A stretch of 64,000 bases of DNA, counting the filler, from Stramenopiles sp. TOSAG23-6 (taxonomy: Eukaryota), in assembly GCA_900128565.1 (NCBI GenBank). It is 17 parts of 17 records of this genome, joined end to end, with 100 filler letters (N's around TTAATTAATTAA, not from the genome) between each part and the next. Parts side by side here need not be neighbours in the genome. Positions count along the whole stretch, not along the records: positions 15,158 to 18,834 come from LT637407.1; 16 more parts are not named here. One strand, 5' to 3'. Both the position numbers and the translations under genes were made by a program. The notes under the pieces are model-generated. The model ran no database searches and was not told the DNA's origin. It saw only the letters and a program-made list of their open reading frames with translations. Of the stretch, positions 15,679 through 17,767 are shown one piece after another (position 1 is the stretch's first letter; every line of letters begins with the position of its first letter).

Positions 15679-17767
15679 TTAATCAGTTTTATTTTTTTTC
15701 ATCACAATCCAATCAAAAGAATCAGAAATTTCAGTCTTTTTCAAAAGATGTGGGAAATCTCGACGCAGAATAGCATTCACAGCCTTTGGCCAAGCTTCAT
15801 CAAATGTACGGATTGGTATATATCCAAGTTCTCTACGAGCTTTTTCTATACAAAAGTGTCGATCAATTGTCAACATACAAACTGTAAAGGGTGTTAATCG
15901 TACAAATTTTCCAGAGAAAAAAGAGTACAATGAACACAAATACGATAAAAAATATAAAAATACGACAGGCAACTTAAATTTCTGTCTGATACTGGGTAAA
16001 CCACACATACAAACAGCTTCATCAATTTCATTCCAGAAATTCCGAGCTCCACCATCAGTGATAAAATAAGACTGACCACCGACTTGAACTCTTTTTTGAT
16101 CGTTTTTATCAAACATTTTGTTTTCTTGTGCTTCTTTAGAGAGAGCATTGGCTGCCAATACTAGTGCATGACATATATTATCCATATGAGTGAATGAAAC
16201 TAAATTATTGCCATCACCAAAAATACGAAGTTTCCCTTCATCAGCTGTTCTTAATAAAGCAGGTAAAAACAATTGATCAGATTCACCATACACTTGATGA
16301 GGCATTACAACACATGTTCTCAATTCAGTAGAGTTTGCAGCTCTTACTGCTTTTTCTCCAAGAGATTTTGTTCTAGCATATTCATGTAAAGATTGGCTAT
16401 CTGTTGCATATGGTAATTCTATTTCAGAGAGTCCACGTATAGGAGCACCGGTAAAACGAGTAGATGGGCTACTACAATCAACCAATAACCGTACAGGTGG
16501 ATTTGCTTCTCGACACGCTTTAATTACGTTAAGTGTTCCATGATAATTTACTCCTAAATATAGTTCATGTTTAAAAAATGGTCCGACTAAAGCAGCTATG
16601 TGAAAAACACAATCTATGCCATCGAAATGTCCCTTTAATTGATCAAATTCCGTGATATCAGCCACTACGTATTTAATCATGCATTGTGAATCATCTTTTG
16701 TTGTAACACGATCTTTCATTGGGATATTTCGAATATCACAAGCGATGATTTCTTTTGCGCCTCGATCAACTAGAAGAGAAATTAGTGAAGAACCAACCAT
16801 TCCTCCAGCACCAGTGATTAAACATTTTTCAGGGCATGTAAATTTTTCCGATTTATTTTCATGTTTATTTGGAATCTTATCCACAGATGCCCATCGCTTC
16901 TTTCTCAAGAAATTCTTGTACTCAATATCAGTACCAAAATATGCATCCCACCAAGTAAAAGTTGAAGAATAATTTCCAGTAAAGTTTTGGTGGTGAAAAT
17001 CATGTATTGTGAAAAAACATGAAATCACAAAAAAAATCGTTAGGTACGAAATTTCGTATGACAAAAAATAAATTTGAAAATTGAAAAAAAATAAAATATA
17101 CATGGGCTCGTGCACCTCCATACCATGGAATAAGGTGTAATGGGTTGTAAGGGATATCATATCCGCTGTGGACATCAATAGTCTCAATAAGTCGAACAGT
17201 AAGCCAAGTCCAAGCAAAAAAAAGATGATTACAAAATAAACACATTCCGATCATAAAACCGATACCTAATACAATTGTCTCAAAAGGATGAGCATACTCT
17301 GCCTCTATACCAAAAGGACTGCGAAAGGTGTGGTGAATTTTGTGGAAATATTTGTAGATGCGTTTGTCGTGCAAAGCTCTGTGATTGAAATAATGCCAAG
17401 TATCTTCAACAACCATACAACCAAAGCAACGACTAGCAAGACTCCAAAATGACGGCAGAGTAGCCGCAGACCAGGGAATATCAAAATATATAATGAAATA
17501 ATAGAAGAAAACTATTAAAGGTAATTGTATAAACAATTGGCTCATGTAGATTTTGACTGCGACTGATAACTGCAAACGTAAAGGTGGAGTTGGTTTATTT
17601 TTCTGGATTTTGTACGCTTGAGCAGCAGGAATGAATTGCAGCGTAAATGGGACTAAGTTAAAGATTAAAACCGCCACAGCATGAACAATGGCAGAACCAT
17701 AAACACTTAATTCCCATAGTGAATATCGTATTGTAAGAGCGTTCCAAAGTAAAGCTGGATAAGTCAT
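15679..17767 (-). CDS. Fusion of sterol C4-methyl oxidase (ERG25/MSMO1-like) and 3-beta-HSD/C4-decarboxylase (ERG26/NSDHL-like); one intron at 17002-17101
   Basis: His boxes HRALH, HKIHH and HDFHH, then in the same exon TGAGGMVG and YARTK short-chain dehydrogenase motifs. First in-frame ATG at 17767. Confidence 0.88.
17002..17101 (-). mobile_element. GT-AT family intron splitting the catalytic HDFHH box
   Basis: GCCCAT|GTATAT...AATACAT|GATTTTCACCAC; no AG after the branch motif until ~80 nt into the exon. Confidence 0.9.

Follow-up and report, generated by a model that had tools for sequence, protein, structure and literature searches.

We identified a family of short, closely related inserts that interrupt genes in DNA of Stramenopiles sp. 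TOSAG23-6 (GenBank assembly GCA_900128565.1), and we consider them to be, probably, spliceosomal introner introns with non-AG 3' ends. The window, by which we mean the whole stretch of 64,000 nucleotides (nt) that was analyzed, is made of 17 separate contigs of 3612-3694 nt, sorted by size, with spacers of 100 nt (N...TTAATTAATTAA...N; e.g. 3695-3794 and 7484-7583) between them. An earlier note, made from the sequence alone, had drawn attention to one 100-nt minus-strand copy, at 17002-17101 within a fatty-acid hydroxylase/3-beta-HSD fusion gene, and had called the family genome-wide; since 17 separate contigs represent a near-random sample of the assembly, this is a fair word for it. The flagged copy reads cat/GTATAT...TCATACGAAATTTCGTACCTAAC...CACAATAC-AT/gat, with exon letters in lower case, a 5' site at 17096-17101 and a branch-like box at 17039-17061. 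The flanking-dinucleotide repeat, the ambiguity between these borders and AT...AC borders, and the mobile-introner behavior of the family had been missed. As to the host, the 3-beta-HSD exon finds as its top database match a 98% identical EukProt entry whose name begins GSMAST32, which we read as a single-cell assembly of a MAST-3 marine stramenopile; the second-best match is 59% identical, and later named matches are mostly stramenopiles.

The earlier count of more than 40 related inserts across the window is borne out. A 23-mer box, TCGTACGAAATTTYGTACCTAAC, has 44 matches in the window at <=3 mismatches, where none is expected (100 shuffles: mean 0.00, largest 0), and 63 copies or fragments, spread over 16 of the 17 contigs, are recovered at E <= 0.01 by an nhmmer profile made from 16 seed copies; 4 of the 63 fall in near-duplicate contigs. 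Most copies measure 90-135 nt and they occur at a density of about one per kb. They share one layout: GTAYGT comes first, a T-rich stretch and TTTYGTACCTAAC follow, and A(A/C)AATAC with 2 further nt closes the insert. Position-wise conservation was counted in a curated set of 31 copies (30 full copies from the window and one from metagenome contig L001), all of which lie in sense orientation within open reading frames (ORFs). At the 5' end, every copy (31/31) has G at +1, T at +2 and T at +6, and 27/31 have G at +5, with +3 and +4 variable, just as one would see in a functional 5' splice site. A branch-like CTAAC follows the box in 45 of 57 matches, and 32-56 nt separate the branch box from the end of the insert (86 nt in one copy). 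Toward the 3' end, A at -4 and C at -3 are each present in 28/31 copies, A at -2 in 25/31 and T at -1 in 28/31, and the first exon base is G in 21/31. The final dinucleotide is AT in 24 of the 31, the upstream dinucleotide is AT in 18, and the final pairs seen are AT, TT, AA, GC, GT or CG, with AG in none of the 31. This agrees with the ends reported before, namely TT at 4176-4285, 14765-14869 and 51940-52055, AA at 52446-52557 and GC at 13332-13431, next to an AT majority; the copy at 3500-3589, with a GT end, was read in raw sequence only.

The repetitive nature of the family also leaves its mark on the assembly and on environmental data. No fewer than 21 of 34 contig ends lie <=80 nt from a family box, indicating that the assembly breaks at these repeats. 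In X3, an independent seawater metagenome, summed word depth reaches 15,000-63,000 over family cores vs 0.7-10.7 in exon-only bins, a figure that is not a copy number; we read it simply as an indication that similar sequences are very abundant in the sample.

Exact removal of the inserts restores the genes that they interrupt. In a frame test, the best open phases upstream and downstream were found independently and GT...AC+2 was taken out; the phases match in 25 of the 30 curated window copies, compared with 10 under chance alone (binomial P = 2.4e-8). The five discordant cases are the second member of a tandem pair (the pair jointly agrees), a copy beside a stop codon, a near-tie of 40 vs 39 codons, and the copies at 25412-25500 and 29629-29763. 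In the hydroxylase gene, six homologues aligned by tblastn run to 17102 and restart at 17004 or 17007 with contiguous query residues, one of them (P0004) covering residues 15-82 and then 82-506 across the flagged copy, and removal of exactly 100 nt gives ..GGARAH/DFHH.., so that the insert is bounded and the HDFHH motif restored as first proposed. For ASD, the alignment to PDB 3tz6 covers residues 293-322 in the exon that precedes 61539 and picks up at 323 in the exon that follows 61641. Alignment to orthologues, suggested earlier as a check, is thus contiguous across the junctions in both genes.

The other motif restorations that had been claimed were likewise reproduced: KTIMLAT of kinesin, regained by the reading frames across the junction of 33470-33645; ..VAG/DQLLKGAA and ..T/CVRVP in ASD; DTR/E and D/VRALSIGD in MUS81; the OGG1 junctions; and PEN/GIP of the NIF phosphatase, which was read from the sequence with the family assigned by Pfam. 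The OGG1 copy at 52175-52285 occupies the place of exactly 3 residues of human OGG1 between ..LD and AVPVD. One border had to be moved: the MUS81 copy near 12818-12917 was corrected to 12822-12917 (96 nt, AT end), because only the 96-nt length keeps the frame. Together, these data support the view that the inserts must come out exactly, from GT to the second nucleotide past AATAC, for the genes to make sense, and we infer that they are removed by RNA splicing in the spliceosome.

That the inserts are never removed, the genes being broken or translated through, or the inserts being artefacts of single-cell amplification or assembly, is extremely unlikely. A public protein model of the hydroxylase gene, P0001, does translate through the flagged insert, and three copies are stop-free multiples of 3 (5550-5654, 7135-7236 and 52175-52285). 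However, the insert length is not a multiple of 3 and shifts the frame in 19 of 30 copies, housekeeping enzymes have invariant motifs cut in two by the inserts, and the same family occurs in independent seawater metagenomes and in a contig from the Joint Genome Institute (JGI). P0001 itself changes frame, and its reading through indicates that annotators missed these introns. A protein search with an insert-encoded peptide found no match, and the OGG1 downstream exon had no match in PDB. The top OGG1 match, P0211, was considered as a possible introner read-through and rejected, as it is an unrelated OGG1 with tandem duplications.

The position of AG dinucleotides argues against a conventional acceptor. 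An AG occurs past the branch box in 9 of the 31 copies, 9-21 nt downstream in eight and 56 nt in one. In the four AG-bearing copies checked by hand (6236, 7135, 8334 and 48180), use of the AG would leave 31-34 nt in the mRNA and give a length modulo 3 that no longer fits the observed phase, so the AG cannot be the acceptor. The organism also has GT...AG introns, of which the window showed just two, 61111-61448 and 63557-63685; the latter, in a gene that we take to be Snf7/CHMP-like, is unrelated to the insert family and has no CTRAY-type box.

Where exactly the borders lie needs closer argument. Both flanking dinucleotides are AT in 16 of the 31 copies, and in these the same mRNA results from GT...AC-AT or AT-GT...AC. 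Borders shifted by two nt (NN+GT...AC) would turn most copies into AT...AC introns, the duplicated target supplying the 5' pair and the element supplying the 3' AC. A first-position A combined with a last-position C is a pair tolerated in splicing; U12-type AT-AC introns are marked by a 5' box, /ATATCC, and by a branch box that sits about 10-15 nt ahead of their 3' end. Apart from the 16 indifferent copies, the shifted register can draw on the AC conserved at -4/-3 in 28/31 copies, on a segment missing from one X3 contig (5548-5652; see below) that starts 2 nt before the family GT and ends in AC, and on dinoflagellate introners, which, in the available text of two reports, bring the 3' site and obtain the 5' site from the duplication (10.1101/2020.10.14.339549, 10.1101/2022.06.06.494994). 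Copies with differing dinucleotides are often synonymous under the two registers, such as 5550 (TTG or TTA), 13332 (CGT or CGC) and 60653 (ACG or ACA).

Two copies, both with an upstream GGT (Gly) that must remain in the mRNA, speak against the shifted borders. In the ASD copy at 61539-61641, the GT...AT register gives ..FVAG/DQLLKGAA and the AT...AC register would give ..VAD/DQ; across 86 motif-bearing homologues, DQ is preceded by A in 47, by G in 37, by C and T in one each, and by D in none. In the OGG1 copy at 51940-52055, the GT...TT register gives V-G-E and the alternative V-V-E, with G in 105 and V in 2 of 122 homologues. The first two nt of the shifted introns would vary (AT 18, GT 5, TT 3, CT 2, GC, TG, AA), whereas the inner GT is present in 31/31. 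Identity as U12-type AT-AC introns was rejected, given that there is no ATATCC box, that the branch box lies 32-56 nt (86 once) from the end, and that the two informative copies contradict it. We consider AT...AC borders quite improbable overall. Conservation in ASD and OGG1, combined with an unvarying GT and the +5 G, favors cleavage before GT and ligation after AT or TT, as far as sequence can tell. The conserved glycine codons of ASD and OGG1 further imply that the insertion target was GT there, though the introns end in AT or TT; either the terminal pair would drift or be selected toward AT after insertion, or the element would bring AT.

Several features suggest that the family has been moving, and we read it, on sequence grounds, as an introner-type mobile element. 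In 19 of 31 copies the dinucleotide before GT is repeated as the final two nt (shuffle mean 14.45, P = 0.0065), and three of the identical flanking pairs are not AT (TT, TT and AA; P = 0.0077). One X3 contig (record 5, 485 nt) matches 5409-5547 and 5653-5998 with 0 mismatches and skips 5548-5652. Since this contig begins inside the neighboring intron (5321-5437), the neighbor copy is kept, and the joint of the empty allele, gaatt/atttgg, cannot slide in either direction. Contigs of X3 and X4 enter the introns at 4176 and 6236; of 4 testable copies, 3 are present and 1 is absent. A further member of the family splits an ORF of 178+46 codons in L001, an unrelated public JGI metagenome contig and the one metagenome contig found in a scan for the family pattern that gave 0 prokaryote genome contigs and 0 viral contigs.

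Absence of a copy from a DNA contig of another sample might also point to programmed elimination of transposon-like sequences from DNA, as with the internal eliminated sequences of ciliates, and the short inverted ends GTAT...ATAC with the flanking 2-nt repeat do resemble a precisely excisable cut-and-paste element. We nevertheless regard this explanation as very unlikely. Three other copies in the same gene are present in X3 contigs at equal depth (records 1, 5 and 6) and one in X4 record 11, and a single empty site among four testable ones fits strain polymorphism. An invariant GT, the +5 G and CTAAC at a splicing-like distance are not needed for excision, and we know of no nuclear dimorphism in stramenopiles. 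A ciliate-type internal eliminated sequence was also rejected on the grounds that 3/4 testable copies are kept in metagenome contigs and that the flanks are AT, not TA. The Tc1/mariner superfamily makes 2-bp TA duplications and includes miniature inverted-repeat transposable elements with longer terminal inverted repeats and a related transposase; a Tc1/mariner-like element of this kind was rejected, the duplication being AT, TT or AA rather than TA and no transposase being seen in the window.

A further alternative, which concerns only the mode of spread, is that the copies enter transcripts by reverse splicing and are then reverse transcribed and recombined into the genome, a route put forward for introner-like elements of fungi; the flanking (C)AT/G would in that case be a preferred proto-splice site rather than a duplication. 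We hold this to be unlikely, although it has a number of points in its favor: the sense orientation of all 31 curated copies, the upstream (C)AT and downstream G seen position-wide (-1 T in 28/31, first exon base G in 21/31), the want of any upstream-GT copy ending in GT, and the lack of a visible transposase in the window. Against it, the TT/TT (twice) and AA/AA pairs occur above chance (P = 0.0077), and an antisense family fragment lies between the plus-strand ASD and NIF phosphatase genes (61896-61930, minus strand), which means that the family is not limited to sense sites in ORFs. Tandem copies moreover share one AT, as a second insertion into the duplicated target predicts.

We propose that a short, T-rich, non-autonomous introner family colonized the coding sequences of this stramenopile. 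Each copy would bring its own GTAYGT as 5' splice site, TTTYGTACCTAAC as an extended branch-site box and A(A/C)AATAC as a 3' box, with the 3' junction placed two nt past the 3' box; the dinucleotide there often repeats the pair before the insertion, as a 2-bp target-site duplication would give. The major spliceosome would then cut before GU, branch at CUAAC and ligate after a non-AG dinucleotide 32-56 nt downstream of the branch (86 nt in one copy), skipping AGs nearer the branch box. We see the chances as evenly balanced for a broader version of this proposal, in which the MAST-3 major spliceosome has abandoned the AG rule and ligates thousands of introner-derived introns 2 nt past AAUAC at AU, UU, AA, GC etc., ignoring upstream AGs, with the 3' junction set by the element's terminal repeat, perhaps pairing with the 5' GUAU, and with genome-wide non-canonical splicing arising independently in stramenopiles from a transposon that duplicates a 2-bp AT target and is apparently still active. 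The intron ends are complementary (GUAU/AUAC plus AU flanks) over about 4-7 positions, and 4 of 6 predicted folds close in an end-to-end helix. No structural role is claimed for the end helix or for the palindrome GTACGAAATTTCGTAC beside the branch box, in view of the lack of covariation and of pairing no better than shuffled. An Rfam scan of the window returned one tRNA and no small nuclear RNA (snRNA).

A number of observations weigh against our interpretation. The direct repeat is imperfect, the dinucleotides differing in 12/31 copies, and none of the 5 upstream-GT copies ends in GT; the terminal AT may be part of the element or selected rather than a plain duplication. The segment missing from X3 consists of GT plus the element (5548-5652) with the downstream AT left in place, so that a duplication model needs one extra A>G change, and the 'DNA?' label carried by X3 is a guess. 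No transposase or autonomous copy was found within the window. The register is decided by two copies only (61539-61641 in ASD and 51940-52055 in OGG1). Pairing of the ends never exceeds that of shuffled partners and shows no compensatory change, and the palindrome GTACGAAATTTCGTAC has one-sided changes only, with no compensatory pair. Finally, the RNA runs X7 and X8, with 13-15% of sampled words present, provide thin exon pieces only: four pieces fall on 3795-7483 (records 19, 20, 23 and 31 of X7/X8), and among the contigs listed for this stretch none crosses a junction. Read joints listed there are mostly cross-matches between family copies, with at least 463 more joints beyond those listed. 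In a large protein library, transcript-derived proteins gave at best <=71% identity for ASD and, for the hydroxylase gene, only the read-through model P0001. The earlier proposal that this protist splices most of its introns without the AG rule is upheld in part, namely in the exact removal from GT to AATAC+2, in the non-AG ends of 31/31 copies and in the register of two copies.

Comparison with known systems places the family close to introners while setting it apart from each described case. Introners of Micromonas, Aureococcus, Chrysochromulina and dinoflagellates are, according to the accessible literature, likewise multi-copy, similar, short sense introns whose removal leaves mRNA length unchanged, and their presence or absence likewise differs between isolates. 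As far as the available text of the reports goes, one splice site lies in the element and the other in the duplicated target (10.1101/2020.10.14.339549, 10.1101/2022.06.06.494994), and the Chrysochromulina type brings the 5' site and co-opts the 3' site (10.1101/2022.06.06.494994). In the present family the co-opted 3' dinucleotide is never AG (0/31), whereas described introner families are usually GY-AG, and the duplication is 2 nt vs 4 or 8 nt in the published examples available to us. Of the features that characterize introners we found many similar whole-intron copies, sense orientation in genes, ORF-restoring removal and signs of mobility; in place of GY-AG borders we found GT in 31/31 and AG in 0/31. 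A 2025 introner survey, in the part of its text at hand, discarded families with unfamiliar splice sites unless they were RNA-supported (PMC12130899), and a family like ours could therefore have been dropped.

Amoebophrya, also a marine protist, shares repeated introns, direct repeats at the borders, inverted ends and repeat-ambiguous non-GT-AG borders, and the accessible text describes its elements as bearing inverted repeats of 8-20 nt and direct repeats of 3-5 nt, without a clear terminal-dinucleotide signature (PMC7789003). The present family differs in its invariant 5' GT, yeast-like branch box, end pairing of ~4-7 nt and 2-nt repeat. The nonconventional or 'intermediate' introns of euglenids, as portrayed in the available portion of the source, have in common with it variable non-canonical borders and ends able to pair, approximating the splice sites (PMC4770533). 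Unlike euglenid introns, our family has short, non-covarying pairing, clear spliceosomal 5' and branch signals, and a single repeated sequence family. A transposon origin has been proposed for the non-canonical introns of tunicates. Fritillaria and other tunicates belong to a different lineage in which the 5' GT is also lost, whereas only the 3' AG is lost here; adaptations of U2AF and of snRNA modification are reported for tunicate non-canonical splicing in the sections that we can cite (PMC13326754, 10.1101/2025.08.15.670264).

We found no publication, supplementary tables aside, that links MAST-3 to unusual introns or describes the present family. In their available text, PMC5778133 mentions introns only in its methods, PMC12614181 does not contain the word 'intron', and a 2026 single-cell preprint gives intron proportions only. 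Table 1 of PMC5778133, the part relevant here, lists 3289 and 2694 predicted genes in about 19-21 Mb for MAST-3 assemblies and 4652-8537 predicted genes in about 28-33 Mb for MAST-4 assemblies. We suggest that missed introns may contribute to the low MAST-3 gene numbers.

The individual copies are as follows. On the plus strand, 4176-4285 (tt/GT...AC-TT, 110 nt) has phase 0 on both sides and its 5' part in X3 record 1; 5321-5437 (at/GT...AC-AT, 117 nt) has its last 29 nt in X3 record 5; and the polymorphic copy at 5550-5654 (gt/GTAGGT...AC-AT, 105 nt) is stop-free and in frame. The copy at 6236-6342 (at/GT...TC-AT, 107 nt) carries its unused AG 11 nt past the branch box and has its 3' end in X3 record 6 and X4 record 11. 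Farther along the same strand lie the long, degenerate 6618-6796 (at/GTATGT...ACAATAT-CG, 179 nt; phase 2 on both sides), 6930-7036 (ct/GT...TC-AT, 107 nt) and the stop-free 7135-7236 (at/GT...AC-AT, 102 nt). The head-to-tail pair at 8042-8232 (8042-8133 and 8134-8232, plus strand) shares its middle AT and preserves the frame only when both members are removed, with phase 2 upstream of the first and downstream of the second. Beyond it on the plus strand are 8334-8435 (at/GT...AC-AT, 102 nt), with an unused AG, and 10904-11006 (gc/GT...AC-AT, 103 nt), which lies close to where a coiled-coil ORF ends and whose phases disagree.

MUS81 (ERCC4 domain) contains three minus-strand copies, at 12822-12917 (at/GTGCGT...AC-AT, 96 nt), 13110-13205 (at/GT...TTAC-AT, 96 nt; removal restores D/VRALSIGD) and 13332-13431 (gt/GT...AC-GC, 100 nt; removal restores DTR/E). 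Also on the minus strand are 14530-14621 (at/GTTCGT...CTAC-AT, 92 nt), 14765-14869 (tt/GT...ATAA-TT, 105 nt), 23417-23506 (ct/GT...AC-AT, 90 nt) in a thioesterase-like gene, 25412-25500 (at/GT...AC-GT, 89 nt), whose phases disagree, and 37871-37991 (at/GT...AC-AT, 121 nt) in a WD40 gene. The kinesin copy at 33470-33645 (at/GTATGT...TTTC-AT, 176 nt, minus strand) should recur in the near-identical contig 34036-37709. Plus-strand copies include 21028-21131 (at/GTACAT...GGAC-AT, 104 nt), 29629-29763 (at/GTTTGT...AC-AT, 135 nt; phases disagree), 29871-29980 (tt/GT...AC-AT, 110 nt) and 48180-48283 (at/GT...AC-AT, 104 nt), the last in an ELMO-domain gene and with an unused AG. OGG1 holds the minus-strand copies 51940-52055 (gt/GTACGT...AC-TT, 116 nt) and 52175-52285 (tg/GTACTT...ATAT-AT, 111 nt, stop-free), and 52446-52557 (aa/GT...AC-AA, 112 nt) is on the same strand. 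Both ASD copies are on the plus strand, 60653-60952 (gt/GTACGT...AC-AT, 300 nt; removal restores ..AT/CVRVP) and 61539-61641 (gt/GTACCT...AAAC-AT, 103 nt). In the region of the 300-nt ASD intron (60430-60910), the branch box and T-rich leader are tandemly repeated at a spacing of ~50 nt, with box matches at 60435, 60539, 60732, 60781, 60829 and 60884. A copy at 45034-45129 (minus strand) begins with ATATGT instead of GTATGT and leaves stops in all three joined frames; it may be dead or outside a coding region.

The surrounding sequence has features of its own. G+C across the window contigs is 27-36%, and two near-duplicate contig pairs, 1/16 (99.7 and 98.8% identity) and 9/10 (99.97%), could be alleles or co-assembly duplicates. 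The flagged copy lies in one fused gene (15745-17878, minus strand) that joins a fatty-acid/sterol hydroxylase (ERG25-like) domain to a 3-beta-HSD (ERG26-like) domain, a fusion that recurs in several 600-650-aa homologues from metagenomes and an MMETSP transcriptome (P0004, P0007, P0009). A tRNA-Phe (GAA) is found at 22711-22783 (plus strand), at the very start of contig 7. The ORF at 44073-45053 (minus strand) combines a MAC/perforin domain with RCC1 repeats, to our knowledge an unusual pairing. In the NIF phosphatase intron region (62800-62900), the exon end CCAGAAAAT and the intron start GTACATTG.CATTAACCCTAACCCTAACAC are duplicated ~70 nt downstream. A telomere-like 12-mer, CCCTAACCCTAA, which includes the branch-box core CCTAAC, occurs 11 times in the window vs 0 in shuffles (6456, 14058, 19191, 19266, 23174, 23187, 24126, 40892, 46070, 62812 and 62885); some of these sites are in frame within coding exons (N-P-N-P) and others lie in introns or spacers.

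In summary, if cDNA confirms the borders, this organism would represent a new lineage, and the first stramenopile found, in which most introns are without an AG acceptor. If true, the textbook 5' and branch sites would have been kept, unlike in other such lineages, leaving the choice of an AG-less 3' site isolated and testable. Functional and phylogenomic conclusions drawn from public gene models may need to be redone with a GT...AAUAC+2 border model. The family would also offer an intron-creating transposon caught in action, with filled and empty alleles coexisting in the sea today.

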